Positions 1,028 through 16,359 of a stretch of DNA of 17,955 nt are shown in pieces. This DNA comes from a virus (Duplodnaviria > Heunggongvirae > Uroviricota > Caudoviricetes). A program made the translations under genes and the position numbers. The notes under the pieces are model-generated. The model saw nothing but the letters and a program-made list of their open reading frames with translations, did not search any database and was not told the DNA's origin. The DNA is taken from the IMG/VR virus record IMGVR_UViG_2529292723_000018. One strand, given 5' to 3'. How positions within the stretch are numbered: the first letter of the stretch is position 1; each line of letters opens with the position of its first letter.

Positions 1028-2647
1028 TCATGCTCCACTCGATTTCAGTAATCCGCGATAGTCGAGGGCCGCGACACCTGCATCTATGCGCACCTTCCAG
1101 GCGACGCCATCAACAGTAAATCCCTCCTGCTCCTCAAGATATGGCGTATCAATACCATCAAGATAAGCGACCTCTATCGTGTCCATCCCCTTCGCCGCTG
1201 CCACATACCACTCCTTGTTATTGGCTTTATCAAGACGCGGCTCGACGATAACCTCTGCCATATCTTTCACCACGTTAATGATGCCGGGGTTCTGATTGAT
1301 AGTGCCTCCACCATCAATCGGAAAGAGTGATGACGATGACAGAATGGCGCGATGTGCGGCAGACTCCAGCGCAGCAGGGACCAGAACAAAAGCGGGGGTA
1401 ATATTCAGGGAGTCGCCGTTGCCATCCTCCTGTAATCGCATCAGCTTACGGGCTTCGTTAAGCCCCTCCATGTCCATATCCTTCGCAATAAGATTTTTAT
1501 GATCGGCATGGAATAACGCTTTACCATCCGTAAATTTGCCGTTGCTGGTTAACAGAAGATAAACCAGATTACCTACTGTTCTGGCGGCCGCACGCCCCAT
1601 CGCCATGGGGATTGTAGTTAACTGGGTCAGGTCATCGTTGATAATGGCCTGACGGGTAACAGAAAAAATATTACCGTATGTGGCCAGCGCAATAGGTACA
1701 CCTTTATCGCTGGTGGTGATGTATTTATATTCCGCACCTTCCGGTACTTTATCCAGCTTTGAAAAACCATTCAGACCAACGCGCTTTGCTTCATGAAAGT
1801 TTGAAAGCGATCCGGTACACGTCCATTTCTGGAACGTTTCGCCGCTGTCCTGCCAGCCTTTCAGCACTGATTTTTCAGCACCACCAGCCAGAATATGAGA
1901 AAAATCGCTGCTGCTGTGTGTGAAAGCTGCATTAACGACCTGCGAGCGATTTAAAAAATTGCCAACACTGATACCACGATCAGTTAGTGATGCCTGGGCC
2001 ATTTCAAAAAGGCTCATCATCGCGTAAGGATTTCCCCGCTCTGGGCGTTCATACCCGAGACGAGAATAAAGCCCCTGACGAATTGCATCGCCTGTTATGT
2101 TCCCGTTACCGGCATAAATATGAGTCGGGATATTTTTATTGGATGGCGTGGACTCGCGCCCCAGCTCGTTCAACAACTTTTCACGGGCCATCTCCGGTGT
2201 ACATGATGCATCCTCCAGGCACGCCATTTTGATCCCGTCGTAACGACTGCCGAACAGGCTAAACACTTCACTTATTCCGTTGATGCGCTTCTGTTCATTA
2301 CCAGCAATATTTGCCGCTCCCTGTGGCGGTGTAATCATTCCTTTAATGGTTTCCGGCATATGTAAAAAATCTCCTGTGCGTTTCGATTCAATTCGCGCCA
2401 TTACTCTGACGGATGGCAACAATTCATCAGCAAAACCGTGCTTAAGGCATTCTTTCCCATCCATCCAGGTTTCATCCTCCAGCATGGCGGTAATTTCCTG
2501 TGCTGATTTGCCCGTTTTTCTGGCATAAGCAGGGATTAACACGGTTTCCACCTTATCCAGCAAATCAGCATAATCACGCATATCGCCAGCATTTCCGCCA
2601 GAGATCCCCCACGGTTTATGGATCATCATGCAATACATTGAAATCAT
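1028..2647 (-). CDS. HK97-fold major capsid protein, C-terminal portion of a ClpP-like protease-capsid fusion; 5' part removed by insertion of element E2 (likely pseudogene fragment)
   Basis: About 80% protein identity by eye to residues ~104-638 of the intact fusion at 4671..6587; homology starts exactly at MMIHKPWGISGG; sequence upstream of 2629 is unrelated. Confidence 0.75.
   Translation of the reverse strand: MISMYCMMIHKPWGISGGNAGDMRDYADLLDKVETVLIPAYARKTGKSAQEITAMLEDETWMDGKECLKHGFADELLPSVRVMARIESKRTGDFLHMPETIKGMITPPQGAANIAGNEQKRINGISEVFSLFGSRYDGIKMACLEDASCTPEMAREKLLNELGRESTPSNKNIPTHIYAGNGNITGDAIRQGLYSRLGYERPERGNPYAMMSLFEMAQASLTDRGISVGNFLNRSQVVNAAFTHSSSDFSHILAGGAEKSVLKGWQDSGETFQKWTCTGSLSNFHEAKRVGLNGFSKLDKVPEGAEYKYITTSDKGVPIALATYGNIFSVTRQAIINDDLTQLTTIPMAMGRAAARTVGNLVYLLLTSNGKFTDGKALFHADHKNLIAKDMDMEGLNEARKLMRLQEDGNGDSLNITPAFVLVPAALESAAHRAILSSSSLFPIDGGGTINQNPGIINVVKDMAEVIVEPRLDKANNKEWYVAAAKGMDTIEVAYLDGIDTPYLEEQEGFTVDGVAWKVRIDAGVAALDYRGLLKSSGA
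2618..2629. repeat. left copy of 12-bp direct repeat ATGGATCATCAT (candidate att core, left junction of E2)
   Basis: Identical 12-mer at 12935..12946; both copies lie at the break points of the split protease-capsid gene and are in frame with it. Confidence 0.6.
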
Positions 2648-2696
2648 CCTACTGATAAATAAGATTAAAAATCACAATACAGATACGTTTGAGCTT

Positions 2697-2720
2697 CATT
2701 GCAATACGCATTGCAATACA
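2697..2720. repeat. tandem CATTGCAATAC(G/A) repeats near left end of E2 (candidate integrase arm-type or regulatory sites)
   Basis: Two tandem 12-mers; a near-identical tandem pair at 12781..12806 just upstream of the int start codon. Confidence 0.45.
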
Positions 2721-3069
2721 CGGTTGCTGGGTGATTTCAAAAGATGAATGCTGCGAAGGATGGAAATTTGGGAACTAGGTGGTGAATAGCACAACAAAAA
2801 ATCAGAATTCTACTAGCTTAAAATGATGCAAAAAGCATTCGTGGCATCGCAAGCGCTGTACAATTCGTTCTATAATGAAGAAAATTTCTAACAGACTTTA
2901 TCATTCAAAGGTGGAGGAGATGACAGCAATGCAACATGCATCACGCTCATACTTGAATTGTAAAGCTATCGTTAGAATCACAGCCTTTTTGTTCCGCTGA
3001 TCTAACGATAAAACTAGTGGTAAAAGGTATATTTTTTAATTTTTCAGACGCTGGCGCGGGGTAATTAAA

Positions 3070-3372
3070 ATGAAATTTGTAAATATACGGTCATCCGAGT
3101 TGCCTGAAATAGATACCTTTGTAAAAGAATGTATCAACCAAGGACAATGGACTCTTTTCAAGGCCGAGAAGGGTGCAGTTAATGATAATAAAGTTGCTTT
3201 TTTTCTAAAGGCTGGCAAAGATTTCTTTGCATTAAATAACAGAGGAAGTGTTATCTCTGTATTTCAATCATTAGATTATAATCTTGAAATGAATGAGGTA
3301 ATTCATTTTTCAGATATTCCTAAACCTGAATCGTTGAGCAATATTGCTAGCTTAGGATTTGCTAGAGTTTAA
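3070..3372 (+). CDS. hypothetical protein (100 aa), first gene of AT-rich cargo operon
   Basis: ATG at 3070; 18-bp gap to next gene on same strand; visibly AT-rich codon usage unlike the core genes; no recognised motif. Confidence 0.55.
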   Translation: MKFVNIRSSELPEIDTFVKECINQGQWTLFKAEKGAVNDNKVAFFLKAGKDFFALNNRGSVISVFQSLDYNLEMNEVIHFSDIPKPESLSNIASLGFARV

Positions 3373-3390
3373 TATATAAGGATATGTACG

Positions 3391-4281
3391 ATGGGATTAA
3401 TATCTGGAAATACACATTGGGTATTATTTTTACCTTGTGAGCACCAACCAGAAGATCGCCATGTTCAAGATTTAGTTCATGGCGTCTTTTGCTTAGAATC
3501 CTCAGGTATACAGCCATCTAATATTAGCATATATATTGATGGCCAAAATAGAGCCAACTTTAATAAGTTAATTTCGATTGCAACCCAACATAATTATACT
3601 ATCAAGCCTACATCTGAATTTTTCACCGACTGCGATACAAATAGTTATGAAAATCTAGTTATGTTTGTGACCGGACACGGAAGTATGAATGGTTTGGACT
3701 CTGCGCCGATCATAACCCCATACCGTTTATTGGACAGGTTAAAAAACACTCCTGTTCTCAAGCAAGCAATCGTTTATCTTGGTCAATGTTTCGCTGGTGT
3801 TTTCAACTACTTACCTGCTGGGCAGCGTAAGAGAGGTGAAGATGCCGACCCCGATGTCATTCTTATCGGGGCTACGAGTCTTCATGAAAGTTTGAGTAAT
3901 CCAACAACGGAAAATATTAATGGTATAGATTTTCCTTGGGTTGCAAATCAATTTTTATATCATGTATTTAAGTGGATATCATCCCCGAATGATATCGATG
4001 GGGATGGAAAACATACAGTAATTGACTCTTATAAGTATGCTGGAATCTCATCAAACATGACCAATCGTAGAATGAAGATAGGTTCTTTTGTAGCTTCGGT
4101 AGACTTGCATGAGCAATGGAATACTGCAAAAAAAGATCATGAAGCTAACTTGGCTGATCCACAAAAACTACTCCGTTATAGAGCATTAGATCAGCAATAC
4201 TATGAAAAACTGAACATTAACTATATTCATCAAGAGTGCTGGATATTAAATTCTGTACCTGCACAATCTGTTGAATTCTAA
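3391..4281 (+). CDS. predicted caspase-like (clan CD-type) cysteine peptidase, candidate His96/Cys133 dyad; candidate anti-phage effector
   Basis: TAAGGA Shine-Dalgarno 7 nt upstream; hydrophobic strand + His-Gly (NLVMFVTGHGS) and hydrophobic strand + Gln-Cys (AIVYLGQCFAGVF) 37 residues apart, the arrangement seen in caspase/legumain-type peptidases; AT-rich. Confidence 0.5.
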   Translation: MGLISGNTHWVLFLPCEHQPEDRHVQDLVHGVFCLESSGIQPSNISIYIDGQNRANFNKLISIATQHNYTIKPTSEFFTDCDTNSYENLVMFVTGHGSMNGLDSAPIITPYRLLDRLKNTPVLKQAIVYLGQCFAGVFNYLPAGQRKRGEDADPDVILIGATSLHESLSNPTTENINGIDFPWVANQFLYHVFKWISSPNDIDGDGKHTVIDSYKYAGISSNMTNRRMKIGSFVASVDLHEQWNTAKKDHEANLADPQKLLRYRALDQQYYEKLNINYIHQECWILNSVPAQSVEF

Positions 4282-4285
4282 TCCT

Positions 4286-4453
4286 TTACTTTTTTGAATA
4301 GATTGCTGCAAGTGCCGTTTTGAGGTCGTAATTTCGGCACTTGCAACTGCAACCAGAAATAGGGCGAACGTTTGACAAACGTTTAGCTATAGTCTGCCGA
4401 TGAAATCCAGTCACTTCCGCCAACTCACTTAAATTTAGAACTATCTTTTTCAT
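4286..4453 (-). pseudogene. remnant of Nu1-like terminase small subunit (55 codons, HTH portion only)
   Basis: Hand translation MKKIVLNLSELAEVTGFHRQTIAKRLSNVRPISG... parallels NINQLAAIAGICRQTAAARLKNIQPAGG of the 285..770 protein, then diverges; ends 4 bp from the stop of the convergent cargo gene; not in ORF track (under 60 aa). Confidence 0.45.
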
Positions 4454-4547
4454 CATAATTACCCTTCAGATGTCGAACAAATAACATACAATCCATCATC
4501 TTTTCCACTTTTATAAAGTTTTACCTAATAAAATTCAGTTAGTTAGC

Positions 4548-4632
4548 GAATGATGATGATGTCTATAAAATTCAAAAACTAGCCGTTTCCCGCGATGCCG
4601 CCGCCCCGTGGCAGGCATCCCCGCCGGGAGTA
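4548..4632 (-). other. lambda-like cos site (cos2) of element E2
   Basis: Minus strand reads CCACGGGGCGGCGGCATCGCGGGAAACGGCTAGTTTTTGAATTTT...CATCATCATCATTCG; same position (capsid 3' end to terminase remnant) as cos1. Confidence 0.55.
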
Positions 4633-4634
4633 CC

Positions 4635-4662
4635 TTTTAAAAAAGGGCAGCATCTGCCGCCC
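4635..4662 (-). terminator. putative rho-independent terminator after capsid gene
   Basis: Short GC hairpin (GGCAG/CTGCC) followed by a T-run on the minus strand. Confidence 0.4.
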
Positions 4663-4670
4663 TCCTGTCG

Positions 4671-6587
4671 TCATGCCGCCCCGCTCGACTTCACCATGCC
4701 CCGATAATCCAGCGCCGCCACGCCAGCATCGATACGCACCTTCCATGCAATACCGTCCACAGTGAAGCCCTCCTGCTGTTCCAGATACGGCACGTCCATT
4801 CCATCCAGATATGCCACCTCGATAGTGTCGGTGCCTTGCGCTGCAGTGACGTACCACTCCTTGTTGTTGGCCTTGTCCAGTCGCGGCTCAACCACTACCT
4901 GCGCCATATCCTTCACGACGTTGATAATGCCTGGGTTCTGGTTCAGCATACCGTTCTGGTCTACCGGGAACAGCGAAGATGATGACAGCACAGCTCGATT
5001 GGCTGCGCCTTCCAGCGCGGCAGGTACAAGGATATAGGCTGGGATAACATTAATAGGATCGCCGTTCGCATCCTCCTGCAGACGCATAGCCTTACGGGCC
5101 TCATTGAGTCCGTCTGTATCCATCCCTTTAGCGATGAGGTTTTTATGGTCGGCGTGGAACAACGCTTTACCATCTGTGAATTTGCTGTTGGCGGTCAGTT
5201 GCAGGTAGACCAGATTGCCAACCGTTCGTGCGGCGGCACGCCCCATTGCCTGTGGAATGGTCGTGAGCTGGCTCAGGTCATCGTTGATAATGGCCTGGCG
5301 TGTAACAGAGAAGATGTTTCCATAGGTGGCCAGCGCGATCGGCACACCGCTGTCGCTGGTAGTGACATATTTGTATTCAGCACCTTCCGGGACTTTATCC
5401 AGTTCTGAAAAACCATTCAGACCGACACGTTTAGCCTCATGGAAATTCGACAGAGAACCGGTCTTTGTCCACTGCTGGAAAGTTTCCCCGCTGTTCTGCC
5501 AGCCAGTCAGCACCGACTTTTCAGCACCACCAGCCAGGATATGAGAGAAATCACTGGTGCTGTGCGTAAATGCCAGGTTCACGATCTGCGAGCGATTCCC
5601 GAAACCACTGACGCTGATACCACGATCCACCAGCGAAGCCTGCGCCATTTCAAACAGACTCATCATGGCGTAAGGGTTTCCCCTTTCGGCGCGTTCGTGA
5701 CCCAGACGGGCAAAAAGCCCCTGGCGGATAGCATCGCCGGTAATGTTGCCGTTACCTGCGTAAATGTGCGCGTTACTGGTTTTATCCGATGGGGTCGAGG
5801 TCTTACCCAGTGCCGTCAGCAGCATGTCTTTTGCTTTTTCAGGCGTGCAATCCACATCCTCCAGACACTGCATCTTGAGAGAATCATGCTTGCCGCCGAA
5901 CATGGCAAACAGATCCTTAATCTCGTTGATGCGGTTCTGTTCCGGTACAGCGCTACTGGTGGAACCTTTCGGGCTGGTGATCATCCCTTTAATTTCTTTT
6001 GGCATATGCTCAAAATCCTCAATTCGTTTTGACTCAATACAGGCCATTGCCCTGACGGCGGGTAACAATTCGTCAGCAAAACCCTGCGCTACACATTCGC
6101 GGCCATCCATCCATGTTTCATCCTCCAGCATTTCCGCCAGTGATTCGGCTGATTTACCCGTTTTGCGTGCATATGCCGGGATCAAGACACTTTCGACTTT
6201 ATCCAGAAGTTCGGCGTAGTCGCGCATGTCGTTGGCGTTCCCACCAGAGATTCCCCACGGTTTGTGAATCATCATGAGTGCGTTTTCGGGCATAACGATA
6301 CGGTCGCCAGCCATTGCAATAACTGACGCCATAGACGCGGCGAGACCGTCGATCTGCACTGTAATTTTTGCCGGGTGTTTATTCAGAAGGTTATAGATAG
6401 CGATGCCGTCAAAAACATCGCCACCGGGTGAATGAATGTGCAGGCTGATATGGGAGATATCGCCTAGGGCTTTCAGGTCTTCGGAGAACTGCTGCGCCGT
6501 AATACCCCAGCCGCCGATCTCTTCGTAGATGCTGATATTGGCGCTGGTGCCATCGCTGGCCGCTTTGATGGTGTACCAGCCTTTCAT
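4671..6587 (-). CDS. ClpP-like prohead protease fused to HK97-fold major capsid protein (638 aa), intact
   Basis: ATG at 6587 with AAGGGGA Shine-Dalgarno; N-terminal ClpP-like motifs (GLAASMAS, MMIHKPWG); long C-terminal capsid-like region; ATGA overlap with upstream small gene. Confidence 0.85.
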   Translation of the reverse strand: MKGWYTIKAASDGTSANISIYEEIGGWGITAQQFSEDLKALGDISHISLHIHSPGGDVFDGIAIYNLLNKHPAKITVQIDGLAASMASVIAMAGDRIVMPENALMMIHKPWGISGGNANDMRDYAELLDKVESVLIPAYARKTGKSAESLAEMLEDETWMDGRECVAQGFADELLPAVRAMACIESKRIEDFEHMPKEIKGMITSPKGSTSSAVPEQNRINEIKDLFAMFGGKHDSLKMQCLEDVDCTPEKAKDMLLTALGKTSTPSDKTSNAHIYAGNGNITGDAIRQGLFARLGHERAERGNPYAMMSLFEMAQASLVDRGISVSGFGNRSQIVNLAFTHSTSDFSHILAGGAEKSVLTGWQNSGETFQQWTKTGSLSNFHEAKRVGLNGFSELDKVPEGAEYKYVTTSDSGVPIALATYGNIFSVTRQAIINDDLSQLTTIPQAMGRAAARTVGNLVYLQLTANSKFTDGKALFHADHKNLIAKGMDTDGLNEARKAMRLQEDANGDPINVIPAYILVPAALEGAANRAVLSSSSLFPVDQNGMLNQNPGIINVVKDMAQVVVEPRLDKANNKEWYVTAAQGTDTIEVAYLDGMDVPYLEQQEGFTVDGIAWKVRIDAGVAALDYRGMVKSSGAA

Positions 6588-6796
6588 TTTTCCCCTTCCG
6601 TTACAGCGAAGCCATTTTCATCAAGCCATGCGTTGACTGCGTGCCGGACTACCTGTGCCACTCCGGGCAATGGCTGGACAGGAAGATTTTTCAGATGATC
6701 GTTGCGGTATTGCTTAAGGCGTACAACGGTTTGCGCGTCCAGATGTACGGAGCCGCCTTTAGTCTCGCCAGTGTTTAAATCGTTAATGTCACTCAT
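6584..6796 (-). CDS. small conserved protein (70 aa) upstream of and translationally coupled to protease-capsid gene
   Basis: ATG at 6796 with AGAGGA Shine-Dalgarno (ORF-track start at 6844 is TTG); homolog at 13258..13464 (MSDINDLNTGE... vs MSCINDLNTGD...). Confidence 0.55.
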   Translation of the reverse strand: MSDINDLNTGETKGGSVHLDAQTVVRLKQYRNDHLKNLPVQPLPGVAQVVRHAVNAWLDENGFAVTEGEK

Positions 6797-6941
6797 GATG
6801 TCCTCTACTGTATAAGTAAACAGGTTATGATGATTGATCACCAAAAGTGGTAAGTGAACAATTTTTTATCTGAAAAATAGATTTATGATGAAAAAAAATT
6901 TTTGTATGGTCTTAGATTGGAATAAACAGAAAGGTTAAAAA

Positions 6942-7655
6942 ATGGATCTCACTCGTAATGACGAACTCCTTTTGAATGATGCAGCTAGACGCTCATTTCG
7001 GGATATGGCAGACCAGGATTATCTCTCAGCTCGTCTGTGTTATAAGCACAAATTGAATTTTCAATTTTTATGGCTTTCGCAACAAGCCGTAGAGAAATAT
7101 ATTAAAGCGATTTTACTTTATAATAGAGTTCCAGTATTAAAATTAAATCACAATTTAAACAAAGGGCTGGCAAAGATTAAAGAAATCCCATATCTTGAAT
7201 TAGACCTAGATGTAAAAAGTGAGCGATTCATAGATTATCTCAATGAGCAGGGCCCAAATAGATACTTCCAAAACACTATGTATACCGAAGGCTTTGAAAT
7301 TATAACCTTGGATAGAACCATCTGGGAATTAAGAAGATACTGCAAGCCACTAAACTACTCAATTACTAACCCAAAAGGTGAAGTGATAGAAATGTTAGAA
7401 CATGAATTGAGTAGCATAAAAAATTCGAAGTCGAGGCCTTATCATACGTTCAAACTATTTGGAGGTTACTTAGAAAAAAGATTAAAAGATAATAAATTCA
7501 ATCAGGGCGACATACTTACATGGAAAAATTTATTTTTTGGAAGAAATAAAAAAAATGCAATTAGAATTGGAAGATCAATGCATGTAACTCATCCAACTCA
7601 TTATATGTACCCAAATGCAACGGAAATGCTCAGTCGTTTCTTTAAAATAAAATAA
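6942..7655 (+). CDS. HEPN-like protein (tentative), candidate abortive-infection effector; AT-rich cargo
   Basis: N-terminal helix pair with QQAVEKYIKAILL resembling the HEPN QAxEKxLKA signature; R-x5-H (RIGRSMH) near C-terminus; opposite strand to flanking core genes. Confidence 0.5.
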   Translation: MDLTRNDELLLNDAARRSFRDMADQDYLSARLCYKHKLNFQFLWLSQQAVEKYIKAILLYNRVPVLKLNHNLNKGLAKIKEIPYLELDLDVKSERFIDYLNEQGPNRYFQNTMYTEGFEIITLDRTIWELRRYCKPLNYSITNPKGEVIEMLEHELSSIKNSKSRPYHTFKLFGGYLEKRLKDNKFNQGDILTWKNLFFGRNKKNAIRIGRSMHVTHPTHYMYPNATEMLSRFFKIK

Positions 7656-7744
7656 TTACATTCCAATTTTATTTACCGCTGTTAAATAAGTAAGGTATAT
7701 CTTTATTTATCGACATTGATAATCATGAAAGAGTATATCTTTTT

Positions 7745-7960
7745 TGCCGCACCTAGCGCATTTCTCACCGCACTTTCATCCCGCGCACTTAGGTGCGCAA
7801 TCCAACATGCACCGTACAGCCATTAAAACCAGTAATGGGGCGGGTTTGCAGGTGATTAATGCCAAACCGCGCACTTTCTTCGTATATACATGGAAAAAGT
7901 GCGGCAAGTGTATGTTTTATGAGCATTTCGCGCATCACGCGCATTTCTTGCCGCACTTTT
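7745..7960. repeat. iteron-like repeat cluster (TTGCCGCAC / CGCACTTT / GCGCATTTC, direct and inverted); candidate origin for the E2 replication protein
   Basis: TTGCCGCAC at 7745 and 7949, its complement at 7900; CGCACTTT four times; GCGCATTTC at least twice; lies immediately 3' of the replication gene, as the TGTTCACC iterons do in E1. Confidence 0.45.
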
Positions 7961-7964
7961 CAGG

Positions 7965-9374
7965 TTAAATTATCGTGATATCTCCTGAATCATCGATAAA
8001 GATAATATTCTCCCTAACGAGTTTATCAAGCCAGCGTTTAAAACCTTTGCGGCCGTTCTCTCCAAACAGAGTGGTAATATCATCACGTATAACAGAGACA
8101 TTACACGGTTCACCTTTGGCTTTTCGGCTCCGGATTGACTGCCAGAGTGCAGCGTGGTTCCCAGTCAGGTGCTTGATATCAGCAAGTTCCGGATCAGGTT
8201 CTCGTGCCTCTCGTGGCAGGTCCTGCACCACCAGCGACGAAATAAGCTCACCATCACGATCTGTGAACAATTCGATCGGACGCAGATCGAATGCGGCCTG
8301 TTTCGGCTCCTCCGCATCTTTCATCTTCGTACAGGTCAGGATTATCGCCCCACCATCCCCCTCGCGCCGGACATTGAACTCTGCATCGAGCGCAGCCCTG
8401 AAAGCACTGGAACCACGTGCGCCTTTGGTATCGTCTTTTCCTGAATGATGCACCACCAGCAACGTGGCGCCAGTCTCACGCTTGATGACGTCGCAGCCTT
8501 CAATAAACGCCCCCATGTCACGAGCATCGTTTTCATCGTTACCACCAAAGCACCGCGCTAGAGTATCTATGACAATCAGGCGAACCGGCTGCCCCGTTTT
8601 GGACTTAACGTCACGCGCAGCTTTGATCATCTCCTGCATTTCCTCACGGCGAACCGGGAAAACCGGACGGTTTACCAGATACAGATTATTTAGTTTCACA
8701 CCATGTTTTTTCTCCCACGCCTTTATTCGCCGCGGAACGCCAATACCACCTTCACCTACTACGTACATCACAGCGCCGGCTGATACCGACTTCCCCGCCC
8801 ACTTCATCCCGGCTGCAACGTGACAAGCCCAGGACACCGCCAGAAAACTTTTATACGAACCGCTCGGGCCGTAGATACTGCTCAGGCTGTTAGCGGGAAG
8901 ATAACTTTTTAACGTGTAATCCTGCTCCTGATCGTACCCATCAGAGCCCACGCTTAAAGGAAGGCTGTGCCGCAGTGACTCCTCTCGCACAGAGACTTCA
9001 ACCTGTTCACGCAGACGAGAAAGATATTCCCTCCAGTCCTCAGGCTCATGGTCGGGGATTCCTTTATACAATTTGGCATCCTGCACGCCAGCCAGCGCCA
9101 GCTTTTCAGCAATGTTATTAATCTGGATAGGCTTTATATTCCCTGCCAGGTAAATCCGCACGGCACGACGGCCATCATCCACAATGCGCAGGTTATCCAG
9201 CTCTGCCAGTTGTTTTGGCCCAAGGTAAACAGGAGGAGTGGTATCTTCGGCAATCTGTTTACCAAGCCCCTCTTCCCAACCCTTCGCATGGGCGTATGCT
9301 TCTGACCCGGCAAAAATAACTGCCTCCGTGAATTTTTCTTTTGGCAGGTGTTTCAGATTCGGTGCGTTTTTCAT
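7965..9374 (-). CDS. replication protein: N-terminal domain shared with the P4-family primase at 14246..16063 plus AAA_25/RecA-like ATPase (pri-rep type)
   Basis: ATG at 9374 with AAGGGG Shine-Dalgarno; deviant Walker A (YGPSGSYKSF); LLVVHHSGKD...RGSSA motif typical of RepA-like ATPases; first ~110 aa align with the E1 primase (KxAPNLKH...). Confidence 0.75.
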   Translation of the reverse strand: MKNAPNLKHLPKEKFTEAVIFAGSEAYAHAKGWEEGLGKQIAEDTTPPVYLGPKQLAELDNLRIVDDGRRAVRIYLAGNIKPIQINNIAEKLALAGVQDAKLYKGIPDHEPEDWREYLSRLREQVEVSVREESLRHSLPLSVGSDGYDQEQDYTLKSYLPANSLSSIYGPSGSYKSFLAVSWACHVAAGMKWAGKSVSAGAVMYVVGEGGIGVPRRIKAWEKKHGVKLNNLYLVNRPVFPVRREEMQEMIKAARDVKSKTGQPVRLIVIDTLARCFGGNDENDARDMGAFIEGCDVIKRETGATLLVVHHSGKDDTKGARGSSAFRAALDAEFNVRREGDGGAIILTCTKMKDAEEPKQAAFDLRPIELFTDRDGELISSLVVQDLPREAREPDPELADIKHLTGNHAALWQSIRSRKAKGEPCNVSVIRDDITTLFGENGRKGFKRWLDKLVRENIIFIDDSGDITII

Positions 9375-9694
9375 TTCAGCCCCTTATCCCATCCGTCAGA
9401 TCCAACACTCAGCGGCAGAGAAGAGCGCAGAGCAGCGATTTTTTTACGCACGTTTTCTTTTCCGGTCTCCTGCCACTCCCTGCTTTCCTCAGGGAGATAA
9501 ATAAATTCTTTTCGGAACCGGTACTCAGAAAAAATACACTCATGTGAATACCCATCCCGGACATACGTAATACGGCTATCCGTTATGCATGTGACAGTAA
9601 TTTTTTCTCCGCGAGAATCTTTCCAGCGACTGTTAAGCTCGATTTTTGGTTGAGCGATGCCCTCAAGCTGAACCTGATTGAATTTTTTAATCAT
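9371..9694 (-). CDS. small protein (107 aa), homolog of 16060..16359; C-terminal tail resembles the primase linker
   Basis: ATGA overlap with primase start; YVRDGYSHECIF vs YFIRDGYSFHSS in the E1 homolog; C-terminal LRSSLPLSVGSDGWD matches primase LRHSLPLSVGSDGYD. Confidence 0.55.
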   Translation of the reverse strand: MIKKFNQVQLEGIAQPKIELNSRWKDSRGEKITVTCITDSRITYVRDGYSHECIFSEYRFRKEFIYLPEESREWQETGKENVRKKIAALRSSLPLSVGSDGWDKGLK

Positions 9695-9698
9695 GAAT

Positions 9699-9878
9699 TT
9701 ATTCCTTGTCGGTAGCCGTTAAACCGTATGCTTCAGCAGCCTGACGAACTGCCTGGATAAAACCTTCCGGTGTGGCCACGATTTCGTCCGGACGAAGGCG
9801 GCGCTCTGTAACCTGACCGTTTTTAACCGTCACCAGTACGCGGATCTCGTAATCAGCAGGTAAGGCGGAGTTATCCAT
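9699..9878 (-). CDS. small hypothetical protein (59 aa from internal ATG)
   Basis: ORF-track frame 9699..10004; upstream part overlaps the better-supported gene 9871..10158, so start placed at ATG 9878. Confidence 0.3.
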
Positions 9879-10158
9879 GGCGCCCCTCCATTGGCACAGC
9901 TTCATTGCTGTAAGGATCGCTACCCAAGATGCTCCATAGGGTGCGATGTTCAGGATCCATAAACGACACTGAGAGCGGGCTTTCTGTTCGGATTTTGGCG
10001 GCAAAGGTCAAGTCCCAGCCGCAGAACTTTGCACGGGCAGTATCTTCAGTGTCTGCAATGGTGCGCAGAACTATCGGGAGACAAGAGTGACCTCGCGGCG
10101 TGCCAAGGAATAGCCATGTAAATTTTGGGCGAGTTTGGGTATGCTGTTGATCAGCCAT
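9871..10158 (-). CDS. small protein (95 aa), first gene of leftward operon; homolog of 16679..16883
   Basis: ATG at 10158 with GAGGT Shine-Dalgarno; shared KFTW motif and downstream pattern with the E1 homolog. Confidence 0.5.
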
Positions 10159-10190
10159 AACTGTTACCTCAACTAACGGTTTGTGGTTAG

Positions 10191-10239
10191 ACGTCCCGTG
10201 AGTGGTTCCAAGCACTTCCGGGACGTTGCTTTTTTCACG
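10191..10239. promoter_or_regulatory. conserved stem-loop (ACGTCCCG / CGGGACGT, 20-nt loop) followed by T-run, at the 5' end of the leftward operon
   Basis: Same structure at 16919..16965 in E1 with a compensatory pair (T-A replaced by C-G). Confidence 0.45.
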
Positions 10240-10248
10240 TCAAGCGTG

Positions 10249-10298
10249 ATAACGTACGTACGTAATAGCAACATCCTATGAGGTTACGTACGTACATG
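10249..10298. promoter_or_regulatory. two palindromic operator-like sites (ACGTACGTACGT core) between divergent RHH gene and leftward operon
   Basis: TAACGTACGTACGTAATA and TTACGTACGTACATG about 34 bp apart; second overlaps the start region of the RHH gene. Confidence 0.5.
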
Positions 10299-10487
10299 TC
10301 AACAATAAAACGAGATAAAACACCCAAAGGAGAGGGCTTGTCTCCGACATTCCAAATCCGAATAAGTCCTGAATTGCGCCAGCAGATGAATGAAGCTGCT
10401 GAGCGTGAGGGAGTAAGTCTTGGTAATTGGCTTAAAGGTCTGGCTAGAAATGAACTTATTAAGCAAGGAATTGAACCTAAAGGTTAG
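10278..10487 (+). CDS. ribbon-helix-helix (Arc/CopG-like) transcriptional regulator, candidate E2 repressor
   Basis: RISPELRQQMNEAAEREGVSLGNWLKGLARNEL fits a beta-strand plus two helices; true start may be ATG 10296 (MSTIKRDK); adjacent to palindromic operators. Confidence 0.6.
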   Translation: MRLRTYMSTIKRDKTPKGEGLSPTFQIRISPELRQQMNEAAEREGVSLGNWLKGLARNELIKQGIEPKG

Positions 10488-10540
10488 TTTTCACAAGCAC
10501 TCTTTGATTTTTTCAGTAAAAATTAAATTAAGGAAATTCT

Positions 10541-11251
10541 ATGGATGATTTATATACACCATCTGAATATTTTATGTTCGTAGAGAAATTTGATCATTAC
10601 TTCCCACGAAAAAGCCCTTTTAACTCATTATTATTCGAGTTCAATTATAGATTAGAAGATATAGTTGTTTTTCATCGCTTTGTTATCAACACCTATTCAA
10701 AAAATAAAAAAGCAATTGATGTACAATATAATAAATTTAATTTTCTTGATGATAAACAAAAAAATTCCCTTTCTGATGACGAGTATGAAGCGTATCAACT
10801 CAGGTTTGCAAGGCATATGGAATACATTAACCATCAAACTGATTTGAATGAAAAAGCGTCTTACATTGCTAACGATAGTGTCGTTATAAACTTATGGGCC
10901 ATGAATGAACAATATATGACTAGAGGATTGGCCAACCTAATATCTCAAAAAGAAAATAAAAATTTAAATGAAGTTAAAACGCCTTACAAATGGGATACAA
11001 TCAAAAGTAAATTCCTGTCATATGGAATCAACTTTGAGACATTGCCATCTTATGATGACATTAATGAATGTAGAGTACTGAATAATAAAATAAAACATCT
11101 GAACATAGTAGATTCTGGTTTAGAAGTTTTCCCTCCCTTCAAAGGTAAGCTTAACGAATCACTTACTGGCATGGCCTTTCCTCTTCAAAAATATATCATA
11201 GGCTCTCATCACTTTATAGGAATGCTATTAGAAGAGTGCTCATTAAAATAA
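10541..11251 (+). CDS. hypothetical protein (236 aa), AT-rich cargo in the RHH-alpA slot
   Basis: AAGGA Shine-Dalgarno; AT-rich, Asn/Lys/Ile-rich; the same slot in E1 holds only a 62-aa ORF; no recognised motif. Confidence 0.55.
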   Translation: MDDLYTPSEYFMFVEKFDHYFPRKSPFNSLLFEFNYRLEDIVVFHRFVINTYSKNKKAIDVQYNKFNFLDDKQKNSLSDDEYEAYQLRFARHMEYINHQTDLNEKASYIANDSVVINLWAMNEQYMTRGLANLISQKENKNLNEVKTPYKWDTIKSKFLSYGINFETLPSYDDINECRVLNNKIKHLNIVDSGLEVFPPFKGKLNESLTGMAFPLQKYIIGSHHFIGMLLEECSLK

Positions 11252-11255
11252 ACGC

Positions 11256-11292
11256 ATGGCAACGTATAATTTATCGCTTAATACGTTGCCAT
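11256..11292. terminator. 12-bp perfect inverted repeat (ATGGCAACGTAT / ATACGTTGCCAT, 13-nt loop) between convergent genes
   Basis: Lies between the stop of 10541..11251 (+) and the stop of alpA (-); no strong T-run, so terminator function is uncertain. Confidence 0.4.
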
Positions 11293-11297
11293 ATCTC

Positions 11298-11543
11298 TCA
11301 TTTATTTTTATCGAACCAATCTCCTTTAATCCAAGCTTGCATCTCTGAGAGCCGGTAAGCAACTGCTGACGGCCCAATTTTGATTCGCTTAGGAAATTTT
11401 CCTTCCTGTTCCATGCGCCAGCGCGTTGAGTTAGACAACGTAGTCATAGCCCGGCATTCAGGTTCGCGAATCATTCTGTCAAGGTCAGGCATGTACTGGA
11501 GATCTTCTTTTTTCACAACGGATAACATAGCCATATCAGGCAC
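11298..11543 (-). CDS. alpA: AlpA-family excisionase / transcriptional regulator
   Basis: MIREPECRAMTTLSNSTRWRMEQEGKFPKRIKIGPSAVAYRLSEMQAWI matches the AlpA pattern as recalled; start may be the internal ATG at 11492; 8-bp overlap with int. Confidence 0.8.
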   Translation of the reverse strand: MPDMAMLSVVKKEDLQYMPDLDRMIREPECRAMTTLSNSTRWRMEQEGKFPKRIKIGPSAVAYRLSEMQAWIKGDWFDKNK

Positions 11544-12771
11544 TCCTTTTCTTAATTACTTTTACTGTATTTTCTTCACCCACCAGCCCATCAAGGTAGT
11601 CAACCCATCGGTCCAGTGCTTCTTGCTTTTGAGGGATATACTTGCTGCGGTTATAGACTCCGGCCACGCCCTTTATGGTATGCCCCAGCAGCTGCTCTAC
11701 GACCATAAAATCAACGCCCATATCGTTAAGGCTTGTCGAGAACGTTCGTCTCAAATCATGTAATGACCAGCGTTTTTCATGTTTCAGAGAGATAAAGTTT
11801 GTGCATCCCATCGTACTGACGGTTGAATCAGATTTCAGTTCGCCAAATATGTAGCCTCTCCTTTTAGTCTCTTCGTGCAGGTTTACGATCCACTGGCGCA
11901 TTTTTTGAGGAACGGGGCGAATAATTTCTTCGCCGTTTTTACTGTGCTCTTTAGGTACTGTCCAAATCCACTTATCGAAATCCCACTCATCCCATGTAGA
12001 TAAACGCGCCTCACTCAGCCTGCAGCCAAACACGAGACACAAAATCGCCATCCTTTTTTTGTAATTCATTACACGGGTTTTGCCTTTACCATGAAAGTAC
12101 ACTCCCCACAGATCGGCGACGTAGCTTTCCTCAAGTAGCCGCTCTCTCTTGTTCTGATACTTACCGATATCACCAGGGCTCAAATCATCAAGCACATTGC
12201 ACCGCACATACTGGCGCACCCGGCAGTATTTGAAGATCTGCTTTAACTCAATCAGCATTGCAGCAGACTGAACCGGCGCGATTTTCTTTATGCGGTCGAA
12301 GCACTTGATCCAGTCTGACAGACCGCATTTCTCGACAGGAAACCCGCCGATGTAGGGAAAAATGTATCTCTCATAACGGCGATAGAGCCGTAAAGTCTCT
12401 TTGCGCTTTTCCCTGGCATAGTTATCAAACCAGTAATCGATAGCGTTCTTCACAGTTACTGGAGTGAACAGGTTCTCTTTGGTGAGTTTGTTCTCTATTC
12501 GTGGGTCGAGTCCCTGAGATAGCCATGCCCGGCACTCGTCCCTTTTCTCTCTGGCCTGTTTAAGGGTCATATCTGGATACTTGCCTAACGTCATCCAGAC
12601 GGGGGCGCTTTGTCGGCCGGAATGTCTGAAGAAATACACAAAGCTCACAGTGCCACTAACGCTCACTCTGACAGACAGTCCACGACCATCTGCCACCATC
12701 TTTTGACGCGGCTGGGGTTTACCATGTAAGGCCTTTAACGCCTTGTCGCTTAACTTGTTCTCGCCCGCCAT
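11536..12771 (-). CDS. int: P4-type tyrosine integrase
   Basis: N-terminal arm-binding pattern (GRGLSVRVSVSGTVSFVYFF...LGKYPDMTLKQAREKR); C-terminal catalytic-region motifs LHDLRRTF and LLGHT...VYNRSKY; adjacent to right junction of E2. Confidence 0.9.
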   Translation of the reverse strand: MAGENKLSDKALKALHGKPQPRQKMVADGRGLSVRVSVSGTVSFVYFFRHSGRQSAPVWMTLGKYPDMTLKQAREKRDECRAWLSQGLDPRIENKLTKENLFTPVTVKNAIDYWFDNYAREKRKETLRLYRRYERYIFPYIGGFPVEKCGLSDWIKCFDRIKKIAPVQSAAMLIELKQIFKYCRVRQYVRCNVLDDLSPGDIGKYQNKRERLLEESYVADLWGVYFHGKGKTRVMNYKKRMAILCLVFGCRLSEARLSTWDEWDFDKWIWTVPKEHSKNGEEIIRPVPQKMRQWIVNLHEETKRRGYIFGELKSDSTVSTMGCTNFISLKHEKRWSLHDLRRTFSTSLNDMGVDFMVVEQLLGHTIKGVAGVYNRSKYIPQKQEALDRWVDYLDGLVGEENTVKVIKKRSA

Positions 12772-13258
12772 AAAACCTCATTCTGCAATACACATTGCAA
12801 TACACACTTAACTGCAACGCCGAAAAACAGTAGAAAAGCAATGCAAACAACACCTCTTCTTTCTTCATAATTAACAATAAGTTAATGAATGAATACGGTT
12901 CTTCATGCGTACCCATGAGGTAGTGTGAAGGATAATGGATCATCATCATGGCGTTCTCCGGCATCACTACACGATCGCCAGCCATTGCGACCACCGAAGC
13001 CATTGAAGCCGCAACACCATCGATATAAACCGTAATGTCTGCCGGATGATTCCGTAGCAGGTTATAGATGGCGATGCCTTCAAACACATCACCACCTGGT
13101 GAATGGATCCTCAGATTGATATGTGAAACATCGCCAAGGGCTTTCAGGTCTTCCGCGAACTGCTTTGCAGTAACACCGAAGCCGCCAATCTCCTCATAGA
13201 TAGATATATCCGCCGCTCCACGAACATCCGCCGCCTTAATGGTGTACCAGCGATTCAT
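12719..13258 (-). CDS. N-terminal fragment of ClpP-like prohead protease (first 108 codons authentic; remainder is read-through into E2 DNA); disrupted gene
   Basis: MNRWYTIKAA...GVAASMASVVAMAGDRVVMPENAMMMIH is about 75% identical by eye to the N-terminus of the intact fusion, then diverges at the 12-bp repeat. Confidence 0.7.
   Translation of the reverse strand: MNRWYTIKAADVRGAADISIYEEIGGFGVTAKQFAEDLKALGDVSHINLRIHSPGGDVFEGIAIYNLLRNHPADITVYIDGVAASMASVVAMAGDRVVMPENAMMMIHYPSHYLMGTHEEPYSFINLLLIMKKEEVLFALLFYCFSALQLSVYCNVYCRMRFYGGREQVKRQGVKGLTW
12781..12806. repeat. tandem TGCAATACA repeats 10 bp upstream of int start
   Basis: CTGCAATACACATTGCAATACACAC; matches the tandem pair at 2697..2720. Confidence 0.45.
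12935..12946. repeat. right copy of 12-bp direct repeat ATGGATCATCAT (candidate att core, right junction of E2)
   Basis: Identical to 2618..2629; protease homology begins exactly here on the minus strand. Confidence 0.6.
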
Positions 13259-13464
13259 TATTCCCCCACCGATGCAAAACCATTCTGATTAAGCCAGGTG
13301 TTTACGGCATGTCTGACAATCTGCGCCACACCTGGTAATGGTTTGTCAGGATGATGATTTATATGGTCGATCCTGTACTGCTTAAGGCGCATAACGGTCT
13401 GCGCATCCAGATGAACGGAACCACCCCTGATATCGCCCGTGTTCAGGTCATTAATACAACTCAC
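13258..13464 (-). CDS. small conserved protein (68 aa), homolog of 6584..6796; GTG start
   Basis: GTG at 13464 with AGAGGA Shine-Dalgarno; stop overlaps protease ATG by 1 nt. Confidence 0.5.
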   Translation of the reverse strand: MSCINDLNTGDIRGGSVHLDAQTVMRLKQYRIDHINHHPDKPLPGVAQIVRHAVNTWLNQNGFASVGE

Positions 13465-13564
13465 AGTAACTTCCTCTTACTGACTAAACTGTGCACATTA
13501 TTGATCGATAAAAGTGGTAAATAAATATATTTCTATCATAAAAATAGATTAATCAGATTCAGAC

Positions 13565-13590
13565 ACAAAAAAGCCGGAGAAAATCCGGCA
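13565..13590 (-). terminator. rho-independent terminator
   Basis: GCCGGA-gaaaa-TCCGGC hairpin preceded on the + strand by AAAAAA, i.e. followed by T-run on the minus strand. Confidence 0.55.
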
Positions 13591-13776
13591 TAAATACCCC
13601 GCCATCTGAACACGTTTTGACACTGGCAACTCCACCTGGCAGGTGAAAAACAGATTTATTTATATATTTCAATTAATTGCAAGCTGGTCTAATGACAGGG
13701 AGAAAAAAATATTGTACAGGTGAAAACAGAAATAATTTTTAATTATCAATAAATTATCAAACATGCTGCCGCCGCC

Positions 13777-13848
13777 ATGAAAATGCAAAAACCAGCCTTT
13801 TTCCGCGACGCTCCCGCCCCGTGGCAGGTCACTACACCGGGAGGACCC
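13777..13848 (-). other. cos-like segment (cos3), about 72 bp near-identical to cos1 but lacking the CATCATCAT cosB-like flank
   Basis: Two mismatches to cos1 across the cosN-like core; flanking sequence differs immediately beyond GCATTTTCAT. Confidence 0.5.
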
Positions 13849-13850
13849 AT

Positions 13851-13878
13851 AAAAAAGCCGGATTGCTCCGGCTTCTGT
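13851..13878 (-). terminator. rho-independent terminator
   Basis: GCCGGA-ttgc-TCCGGC hairpin with a 6-A run on its + strand 5' side. Confidence 0.5.
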
Positions 13879-14002
13879 TACTCGTTGCTTAAAACGGTAT
13901 GTTATCCCCGTACGGATCATCATTCCCCGCCTGTTGTTTTGGTGTGCTTCGCTGTCATAGGCTTTATCTCACAGCAGTAAATTAAAATTTTTGCGTTTTA
14001 AC

Positions 14003-14231
14003 CCTTCACCTGTTCACCTTTTGATATTTTCTCTTTTAATTCATAATGTTAAGGGGTGAACAGTTTCACAAAAACTATTCACCAACTGTTCACCACTGTT
14101 CACCCTTGAAGCTCAATAAACAATCAAAAAGGTGAACAGTGAATAGTTTGGTGAACAGTTCATAAATAACTGTTCACCCTATAATATACTGATATAAAAG
14201 ATATTTATGACAGGGTGAACAGTGGTGAACA
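14003..14231. repeat. P4-type iteron cluster: at least 10 copies of TGTTCACC / GGTGAACA in both orientations (candidate ori/crr)
   Basis: Exact octamers at 14011, 14055, 14087, 14097, 14131, 14150, 14171, 14214, 14224 plus variants; TGTTCACC is the octamer bound by P4 alpha protein at ori and crr. Confidence 0.75.
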
Positions 14232-14245
14232 GTTATTCCATAAGT

Positions 14246-16063
14246 TTAATTTTTGCTATCGTCATTAGTGACCGATACACATGATGGCATCCAGTCTTCT
14301 GATTCCTCCGTCAGTGTCACGTTTGAACGCAAACCGTGCTTCGTTTTCCGTTTCATATACTCCCTGCCATATTCCGCCATTGCCCCCGGCATATCTTTAC
14401 CGAAGCGCGTCAGTGTTACAGGTTTACCAAACCCATGTGCCCTCATATAAGCCAGATAGGCATGATAGAGATACCTGCGTGGGCTGAATGGCACAATTTC
14501 AGCATTACCCACTAACAGGCCATCACACATTACCGACGCCATGAGATAGCCGCAGAAGTCCACCAGCGAATCCCCCTCTCGCTTTATCGCCAGTGCTTCT
14601 TCAGATTTCTGCTGCTCATATAACAGGCGTCTGGCTTCGTCCTGGTCAGCAAACCGTGTAAGCAGATGGCGAATCACTACCGCCAGCTCACCTTCTATTT
14701 TTTCCGCCAGCATTGGATCACGTTCGTTCTCCGGTACAACTTCCGAAAAATTGAATATCACCCGACGACGTGAGATCCCCCCGCTGCGGTCACTGAATGA
14801 CATGGCGTTATTGTTAACCGCCAGCACTACTGCCGGAATACGCGTTGAGTAGGGGGCTTTGTGTTTCGGGTCAATTGCCACCTTGTCACCGCCTGTAATA
14901 GCCTTAATCCCTGCCCCATCACCAGCGTAGCGGGTCATATCCGGCATGATAATCAGCGAAAAGCCAACCACTAACGCGCGTTCCCTTGCATCTTCCAGCG
15001 CCTTCATGCTTGCCGATACTGTGTTGGCCTTACCCGCCAGCATGGTGCAAATCTCCGCCATCACGCTTTTACCACTTCCCCCTGGACCTGTTACCTCAAT
15101 GAATAACTGCCAGTCGTACCGGTTCGCCAGCACCATGAATAATGCAGCCAGTACGCGATCCGCCTTGCGGTCATTCTCAGCCACCGAACGGCGTAACCAC
15201 TTCCAGAAATTCGGCGCATGTGTTGCCAGCGTTTCCCCCTCTGCTGGTGGGCTGAAAGGTAATTCACTGGCAATTAACAACCAGTCGTTTTTGTTATGCT
15301 CCCGAAAATTACCTGTTCTGGTATCAAATACCCCGTTACTGAATCCAATCAGGTTACGGGCTGTATTCCCCATTACAGGCAAACTTAACTTCATGGTATC
15401 GACCGCCGATTTAATGGCGTTCTGCGAATAGCTGATCTCCGCATCAATGAAAATCTGTGCCATAGCTCGCTGTAATTCTTTATCCTGTACTGGCTCCCAT
15501 ACAACGCCGTTGTAATGGTGAACAGTGTCAGAGTCAGCATGAATCGCCAGTTCACCGCCATAATGTGCCAGGAGAACTTCGCCGCGTTGACTTGCTCCCA
15601 TCTGGTTAAGCGCCAGTGATGAAGCGTTATCGTCTTTTACCCGCTCTTTTTTCTTTACAGGCAGTTCAACTACCTTTTTCTTTTCCGCCTGCTCTGCCCG
15701 TTCACGTTCCAGATATTCGCGCCAGTTCTCCCGTTTCTGGCTGTGCATTCCTTCAGGATAATAATCAGCATCCCTGACACCTGCCGCTGCCAGTTTCTGC
15801 CCGATGGTATTAACAAGTCCCGGACGCAATAACCCCGCCTGATAGAGACGCACGCGATAGCGTCCGTCTGGTACGATTTGCAGGTTGTCCAGTTCGGCAA
15901 GTTGTTGCTCTCCAAGCCAGACAGGTGGCACGTTATCGCCAGCCAGTCGCCCGTCCTGTTCCTGCCACTGCTTCGCATGTGCCCACGCATCACTACCCGC
16001 AAAAATGATGACTTCCGTCATTTTGTCACGCGGTTGGTGTTTTAAATTTGGCGCTTTTTTCAT
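14246..16063 (-). CDS. P4-family primase / SF3 (D5-like) helicase
   Basis: Start placed at ATG 16063 (MKKAPNLKH, GGAGAG Shine-Dalgarno; the ORF-track start at 16078 is GTG); Walker A GPGGSGKS; cognate TGTTCACC iterons immediately downstream. Confidence 0.8.
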   Translation of the reverse strand: MKKAPNLKHQPRDKMTEVIIFAGSDAWAHAKQWQEQDGRLAGDNVPPVWLGEQQLAELDNLQIVPDGRYRVRLYQAGLLRPGLVNTIGQKLAAAGVRDADYYPEGMHSQKRENWREYLERERAEQAEKKKVVELPVKKKERVKDDNASSLALNQMGASQRGEVLLAHYGGELAIHADSDTVHHYNGVVWEPVQDKELQRAMAQIFIDAEISYSQNAIKSAVDTMKLSLPVMGNTARNLIGFSNGVFDTRTGNFREHNKNDWLLIASELPFSPPAEGETLATHAPNFWKWLRRSVAENDRKADRVLAALFMVLANRYDWQLFIEVTGPGGSGKSVMAEICTMLAGKANTVSASMKALEDARERALVVGFSLIIMPDMTRYAGDGAGIKAITGGDKVAIDPKHKAPYSTRIPAVVLAVNNNAMSFSDRSGGISRRRVIFNFSEVVPENERDPMLAEKIEGELAVVIRHLLTRFADQDEARRLLYEQQKSEEALAIKREGDSLVDFCGYLMASVMCDGLLVGNAEIVPFSPRRYLYHAYLAYMRAHGFGKPVTLTRFGKDMPGAMAEYGREYMKRKTKHGLRSNVTLTEESEDWMPSCVSVTNDDSKN

Positions 16064-16359
16064 TTCTGCTCTCTCCACGCGGCAATCATGTTTTTCAGTT
16101 CCTGTAGTTTTTTATCCACATCCACACGTGACACATGGTTATTTCTGGAAGGCGGGATTTCCCGCCGGAATCTGCAAATAAAGATCTCCACGTTCAGCGA
16201 GCTATGAAATGAATAGCCATCACGAATAAAGTACACACGGTCAAACATTATCGATTTTACTGTTACTCTGTTGCCGTTCTTATCCCGATAAATAGCGCCG
16301 GGGATAATTTTGGGATGTGCATAACCGCTGGCAGTCAAGCCAGATAAATACGTTCTCAT
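16060..16359 (-). CDS. small protein (99 aa), homolog of 9371..9694
   Basis: ATGA overlap with primase start; shared RDGYS motif. Confidence 0.5.
   Translation of the reverse strand: MRTYLSGLTASGYAHPKIIPGAIYRDKNGNRVTVKSIMFDRVYFIRDGYSFHSSLNVEIFICRFRREIPPSRNNHVSRVDVDKKLQELKNMIAAWREQK

Follow-up and report, generated by a model that had tools for sequence, protein, structure and literature searches.

We analysed the virus record IMGVR_UViG_2529292723_000018 (IMG/VR), a stretch of 17,955 nucleotides (nt) that is called the window throughout, and concluded that the array of octamers at its positions 14003–14231 is very probably the replication origin of a phage satellite of the phage-inducible chromosomal island (PICI) type, served by the Rep protein encoded next to it. 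This satellite is referred to as E1; a second element, E2, is inserted into it.

We counted exact copies of the octamer, TGTTCACC, on both strands of the window and used dinucleotide-preserving shuffles of the whole window as the null. The window has 11 exact copies, nine of them inside 14011–14231 (221 nt; four on the plus and five on the minus strand). The shuffled windows averaged 0.47 copies and did not exceed 3; the average corresponds to ∼0.006 copies expected per 229-nt interval. Together with three variants, the array comprises 12 sites (Table 1). A preliminary description of this DNA had reported the same dense array in both orientations, and it stands, except that the count of at least ten exact octamers was one too high; both variants that it named, CCTTCACC and TATTCACC, are present. 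It had also placed the array immediately downstream of a gene, and indeed the first iteron lies 14 nt past the stop codon (14246–14248) of the minus-strand rep gene. The array is non-coding: the region 13981–14245 has no open reading frame (ORF) of 50 amino acids (aa) or more.

In the direction of the gene, one half of the array opens with a pair of direct sites; an AT-rich tract separates them from a single inverted site, which is followed by three direct sites. Beyond a 26-nt centre the order is mirrored: three sites in the reverse orientation, a lone inverted one, the second AT-rich tract and a final pair of sites. This 2-1-3/3-1-2 layout makes the array a ∼230-bp imperfect palindrome, in which a repeat finder marked arms of 54 nt (74% complementary) and 36 nt (83% complementary). 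Within the groups, neighbouring sites start 8–11 nt apart. AT-rich tract 1 is a candidate melting region and has homologous counterparts in the ori and crr of phage P4 and in other PICI origins. No tandem 10-mers (type-2 decamers) were noticed on reading 13900–14300, where no formal search was made, and Rfam and tRNA scans of the window gave no matches. Between the rep stop codon and the first array site there is no terminator, and a terminator-like hairpin, which the terminator scan missed and folding confirmed, lies ∼130 nt beyond the array; the transcription of rep should therefore cross the array.

The rep gene starts at ATG 16063 in RefSeq (605 aa), and its longest ORF starts at GTG 16078 (610 aa). 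The protein has the Pfam domains D5_N, DUF5906 (with the P-loop of a superfamily 3, SF3, helicase) and Pox_D5. Its residues 150–600 are 51% identical to residues 320–771 of the P4 alpha protein, and residues 502–598 match the alpha origin-binding domain, PDB 1KA8, with E=1.8e-24. No alignment was obtained between Rep and residues 1–319 of alpha, which form its Zn-finger/Toprim primase part. Using hhalign, the N-terminal module of Rep showed no relationship to alpha residues 1–320 (probability 0.8%), and searches of Pfam and NCBIfam gave no match for this module and no primase domain. Thus, the earlier term 'P4-family primase' was right for the alpha-type helicase and origin-binding domain and wrong for the primase region, in whose place stands an unrelated module of ∼130 aa.

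This N-terminal module recurs at the start of the Pri-Rep protein of the PICI EcCICFT073 (72% identity) and of the RepA/AAA_25-type helicase of E2 (58%), and it is also found joined to a third kind of C-terminal partner. As a tentative idea, the module, which is joined to three different helicase classes and lacks the canonical acidic residues of Toprim, may serve as a portable adaptor, or as a primase of an atypical rather than a conventional kind. Some E. coli proteins of ∼233 aa (P0001, P0003, P0082 and P0091) carry the module, up to 100% identical, in front of a single-stranded DNA-binding (SSB) domain (PF00436). These probably derive from PICIs by deletions that removed the helicase and origin along with the start of the downstream ssb gene.

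Table 1. Features of the origin region of E1 (positions of the window)
Feature	Position	Strand	Remarks
Intrinsic-terminator-like hairpin and U-tract	13850–13876	− (rep strand)	folding −20 kcal/mol, z −2.7
Iteron array/putative origin	14003–14231	both orientations	imperfect palindrome, dyad axis near 14117
Site 1, variant CCTTCACC	14003–14010	+	
Site 2, exact TGTTCACC	14011–14018	+	
AT-rich tract 1	14019–14054		GC 0.17 in 14020–14049; between outer iteron pair and first inverted iteron
Site 3, exact TGTTCACC	14055–14062	−	
Site 4, variant TATTCACC	14076–14083	+	
Site 5, exact TGTTCACC	14087–14094	+	
Site 6, exact TGTTCACC	14097–14104	+	
Site 7, exact TGTTCACC	14131–14138	−	
Site 8, degenerate variant TATTCACT	14138–14145	−	shares one base with neighbouring site
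Site 9, exact TGTTCACC	14150–14157	−	
Site 10, exact TGTTCACC	14171–14178	+	
AT-rich tract 2	14179–14213		GC 0.13 in 14180–14209; mirror of tract 1
Site 11, exact TGTTCACC	14214–14221	−	
Site 12, exact TGTTCACC	14224–14231	−	
rep gene	14246–16078	−	initiator-helicase; annotated 'DNA primase family protein'
C-terminal origin-binding domain, aa 501–600	14279–14578	−	homologous to PDB 1KA8; Pox_D5
Putative specificity-determining tail, aa 574–590, YMKRKTKHGLRSNVTL	14309–14359	−	co-varies with iteron
SF3 helicase core (D5_N/DUF5906), aa 150–500	14579–15631	−	Walker A GPGGSGKS
N-terminal module of ∼130 aa, Toprim-like fold	15674–16063	−	common to other PICI Reps and E2 helicase

Relation to the origins of P4, PICIs and SaPIs

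In Gram-negative PICIs the origin lies immediately 3′ of pri-rep and has sets of iterons that flank AT-rich DNA; among the PICIs of E. coli, Pri-Rep comes in four alleles, and a plasmid carrying pri and ori of EcCICFT073 replicates, while its Δori and Δpri versions do not (Fillol-Salom et al. 2018, ISME J, PMC6092414). We found the same features in E1, namely the position 3′ of rep, iterons flanking AT-rich DNA, homology of Rep to Pri-Rep and the gene order, which was seen in CP024240, ABU 83972 and CFT073. The Pri-Rep of EcCICFT073 is 49% identical to E1 Rep over its full length, and directly after its stop codon stands an array with the same 12-site 2-1-3/3-1-2 layout, built from TGTCTACC/TATCTACC. 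Both elements have the unidirectional order int, alpA-type helix-turn-helix (HTH) gene, Icd-like, DUF4222, rep and ori, and both origins lie directly 3′ of rep with an identical palindromic layout and two AT-rich tracts. Unlike EcCICFT073, E1 uses the iteron TGTTCACC. Its origin-binding domain is also nearer to that of P4: identities over residues 501–573 and over the tail are 44% and 59% with P4, against 36% and 25% with EcCICFT073. As PICI origins have been described and the sister allele of EcCICFT073 has been tested, the E1 origin belongs to a known kind of element.

The preliminary description had equated the octamer with the repeat of P4 ori and crr, and the P4 record bears this out: there, in both regions, TGTTCACC carries the annotation 'ori type 1 repeat'. 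Copies of the TGTTCACC type number six in ori and five in each 120-bp crr repeat (three exact in the first and two in the second). The P4 crr directly follows the alpha gene and a terminator, and ori lies ∼4.4 kb upstream. By blastn, part of the E1 array aligns to P4 ori. The E1 array was divided at its axis, and each half was compared by alignment with P4 ori, the crr units and the half-arrays of two further PICIs. They all follow a common plan, in which ∼33 nt of AT-rich DNA separate a pair of sites from a single inverted site, and two to three more sites come after it. The E1 half-units are 55–68% identical to P4 ori, the distal half reaching 68%, with matching site order and a similar AT-rich spacer. 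From this shared plan it follows that E1 has two ori-like units, inverted at one locus.

E1 therefore resembles P4 in its octamer, which occurs in multiple copies and both orientations, in the homologous Rep helicase and alpha-type origin-binding domain with the tail motif K[RK]xTKxG, and, as regards crr, in the placement of the array after the helicase gene. The differences lie in the arrangement. In P4 the sites are divided: ori holds one unit together with type-2 repeats, and crr holds two 120-bp units in the same orientation, whereas E1 has a single locus with two inverted units and no terminator between gene and array. Moreover, unlike alpha, E1 Rep lacks the N-terminal Zn-finger/Toprim primase region of ∼320 aa. 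Hence, two marks of the P4 system, the pair of separated cis elements and the alpha primase domain, are absent from E1, and the likeness in repeat organisation to P4 ori/crr holds for the site order of the half-unit and not for the whole, which is one palindromic cluster of PICI layout. We concluded that the array has P4-type specificity and is organised as a PICI origin, not as the split ori and crr of P4. Conversely, the comparison of the units suggests that P4 ori and crr may be viewed as a split form of the palindromic origin.

A further likeness is to the Staphylococcus aureus pathogenicity islands (SaPIs). SaPI Reps have an SF3 or MCM helicase and a C-terminal winged-helix domain, with iterons immediately 3′ of rep; in SaPI origins an AT-rich tract lies between opposed iterons, and origin binding and melting are independent of ATP (PMC9371898). 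E1 shares with this system a self-loading SF3 initiator-helicase, as it would be in E1, opposed short repeats around AT-rich DNA and an origin 3′ of rep. The SaPI iterons, however, are of 5–6 nt, and those of E1 have no detectable sequence relationship to them. The viral origins served by SF3 helicases, those of SV40 T-antigen and papillomavirus E1, offer a distant analogy to the working of the E1 origin.

Covariation of the Rep tail with the iteron

The Reps of F6326 and N921 are 91–92% identical to E1 Rep in the helicase and 85% in residues 501–573, and only 30% in the last 27 aligned residues. Here, MKRKTKHG--LRSNVTL of E1 is exchanged for KRAKCTKGPDKGRTITNVLL, and the arrays of F6326 and N921 use TGTCTACC. 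At the DNA level, their similarity to E1 ends within the last ∼37 codons and none resumes in the array. Since the similarity is lost in the tail and stays lost through the array, tail and array travel together.

We surveyed one genome per species and obtained 80 loci from ∼20 genera of Enterobacterales, of which 79 were usable; two frameshifted loci were left unclassified. For each locus, the repeat that predominates within 300 nt downstream of the stop codon was taken as the iteron. Its median copy numbers there are 6–11, compared with 0–1 over the final 1,500 nt of the coding sequence. Seven tail classes were found to correspond one-to-one with five iteron core classes (seven distinct octamer consensuses; Table 2).

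Table 2. Tail classes of Rep and their iterons among the surveyed loci
Tail	Iteron	Loci	Remarks
K[RK]xTKxG	TGTTCACC	12	PICI-size proteins
RKKSKxGIR	TGTTCACC/TATTCACC	47	813-aa P4-alpha-size proteins, Xenorhabdus and Photorhabdus
..GPDKGR..	TGTCTAC	5	
TRTIKGRRQ	TATCTACC	1	
RKKST[KR]GN	TCTCCACC	8	Yersinia, Rahnella, Erwinia, others
SKKKATRGRIQ	CTGTCCGC	3	Serratia
ATRGPSKGNYQ	CTGTCCAC	1	

An alignment of 15 TGTTCACC arrays, which come from eight or more genera, shows that the plan of 12 sites is conserved; the iteron columns are 84% and the spacers 59% identical to E1 (Mann-Whitney p=9e-10, the columns not being independent). The covariation in the 79 loci supports the view that array and Rep would form a cognate protein/site pair. 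The co-varying tail may be the beta-hairpin wing that contacts DNA; this assignment follows general winged-helix topology and stays inferential, as AlphaFold, run on the single sequence, gave no usable model of the origin-binding domain (pLDDT 38).

Variant arrays stand at the matching position in other elements. Serratia phage Scapp encodes an alpha-type protein of 839 aa, with a binding domain 23% identical, and has an array of the AAAAGTGCAA type (2990–3340). Arrays of TCTCCACC occur in Yersinia and Edaphovirga (L031–L034) and arrays of CTGTCCGC in Serratia (L036, L037 and L042). As each of these variant arrays pairs with a distinct tail, an exchangeable specificity cassette is suggested. 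The preliminary description had called the replication module of E1 'P4-derived'. Such a descent is not established: a single helicase core carries at least seven tail/iteron specificities, of which P4 has one, and the direction of descent cannot be read from the data.

The common octamer and the K[RK]xTKxG tail raise the question of whether P4-like satellites and this large PICI class make up one replication-specificity group. We regard this as a tentative idea, and rather doubtful. From the shared octamer and tail it would follow that P4 alpha and PICI Rep could cross-fire, titrate each other's sites and compete in one cell.

Proposed working of the origin and alternative explanations

The following working of the origin would be consistent with the above data. 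The gene just upstream of the array would encode a self-loading initiator-helicase, the C-terminal winged-helix domain of which, of the P4-alpha type, is predicted to recognise the TGTTCACC octamers. The two mirror-image half-origins, each with two outer sites, an AT-rich tract, one inverted and three inner sites, would place two SF3 hexamers in opposite orientation, presumably loaded as a double hexamer. Both AT-rich tracts (13–17% GC) are the likely places of melting, and replication would be bidirectional. A working of this kind has been established for the SaPI Reps (PMC9371898). Priming might come from the N-terminal Toprim-like module or from the host DnaG.

Three considerations weigh against an active origin in E1. 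Plasmid replication was shown for the EcCICFT073 allele, and for the E1 allele the origin function is deduced by sequence comparison with it. The N-terminal module of Rep is without obvious canonical Toprim acidic residues. Finally, the copy of E1 in the window is broken by the insertion of E2 in the capsid gene; as E1 is disrupted, the origin may never fire in this copy, although rep and array are intact.

The array might instead be an auxiliary cis element like crr, an enhancer or looping partner, with true initiation elsewhere in E1. It does sit where crr sits in P4, directly downstream of an alpha-type gene, and its distal half has AT-rich spacer sequence in common with the crr repeats. 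However, neither the window nor the rest of E1 (in the complete genome CP024240) has a second cluster of octamers, only isolated single copies; each half-unit holds the complete site order of P4 ori; and in EcCICFT073 the equivalent single cluster and pri-rep suffice for plasmid replication (PMC6092414). We therefore consider an auxiliary role very unlikely. An equally improbable reading is that the array mainly serves regulation or copy control, with Rep bound there as at an operator or handcuffing site, or blocking the path of transcription through the rep operon and into the downstream late genes. Transcription of rep has to cross the array on its way to the terminator-like hairpin at 13850–13876, and plasmid iterons commonly double as copy-control sites. 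Yet a promoter scan of the array detected nothing resembling a sigma-70 promoter, its symmetry and paired AT-rich tracts are what an origin typically shows, and homologous arrays are proven origins in P4 (by annotation) and in EcCICFT073. Regulation could also be a secondary role alongside origin function and need not be an alternative to it.

The disruption of E1 could further mean that the array has decayed and no longer has a function, the ClpP-protease/major-capsid fusion gene being split by ∼10.3 kb of E2 DNA. We give this even less credit than the two preceding explanations, as the rep ORF is intact and the array well preserved. The array is found in 688 of 5,426 complete E. coli genomes (∼13%), with no annotated feature underneath, and is 95–100% identical in 567 of these 688 (at least 99% in 227); across genera, as described above, the iteron columns are more conserved than the spacers. 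The array together with the 3′ end of rep was matched in 785 of the 5,426 genomes, and 100% identical copies of rep and array exist elsewhere. A median of two matching places per genome was not accepted as co-resident arrays, because it most likely arises from the palindrome matching on both strands. Taken together, we favour the reading of the array as the replication origin of E1.

The elements E1 and E2 and the meaning of the array

The window is 99.6% identical to the chromosomes of several complete E. coli genomes. In CP024240, E1 lies between a tRNA-Ile gene and nfeF, in the order integrase, HTH regulator, Icd-like, DUF4222, rep, array, ClpP-protease/major-capsid fusion and DUF1441. By this order, which is that of Gram-negative PICIs, E1 is classed as a PICI-type satellite. 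Strain ABU 83972 has the same rep/array pair at another site, within a classical PICI that carries PerC. A search for the lambda cosN in the window gave one match with two mismatches, no better than chance. Between the array and the gene at 13258–13464 we observed two terminator-like hairpins on the minus strand (13573–13589 and 13850–13876), with U-tracts and GCCGGA/TCCGGC stems; the region 13465–13990 has no convincing ORF.

E2 spans ∼10.3 kb (∼2630–12930) and is inserted within the E1 fusion gene, the 5′ fragment of which is 12929–13258 and the 3′ fragment 1028–2629. No direct repeat of 16 nt or more was found flanking E2. This insertion of one satellite into the capsid gene of another is kept in at least four complete genomes. 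E2 encodes an integrase (11536–12771), an AlpA-type regulator, a HicB-like protein, an Icd-like protein, DUF4222, a RepA helicase, a HEPN protein and accessory ORFs, and has its own complete ClpP/capsid fusion gene (4671–6587).

Directly downstream of the gene of its RepA/AAA_25-type helicase (7965–9374, minus strand), E2 also has an iteron array, at 7743–7960. There, nine copies of [G/C]CGCA[C/T][C/T]T lie in both orientations in ∼215 nt; the whole window has 17, against 5.95 expected. The layout of gene followed by array is thus common to E1 and E2, with unrelated iterons and helicase classes. Opposite the main operon, on the plus strand, E2 encodes a HEPN-domain protein (6942–7655), a HicB-family antitoxin-like protein (10278–10487) and a 236-aa protein with no family match (10541–11251), which are possible defence or accessory cargo.

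A full-text literature search for the octamer returned primer sequences and unrelated papers; in the 2018 PICI paper the iterons are given in a figure only. Four points may be unpublished: the identity of a PICI iteron with that of P4, the tail-iteron table, the view of P4 ori and crr as a split origin, and the Toprim-like module without acidic residues. These would be incremental additions.

The E1 array reveals no new kind of system. It corrects the label 'DNA primase' on the gene that adjoins it, and assigns to an unannotated sequence, very common in E. coli, the role of a satellite replicon's origin. The tail-to-iteron table offers a testable predictor of cross-replication or incompatibility among satellites. 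If P4-like satellites and this PICI class do form one specificity group, the specificity of replication would be set by an exchangeable cassette of a ∼20-residue tail and its array, in at least seven classes.
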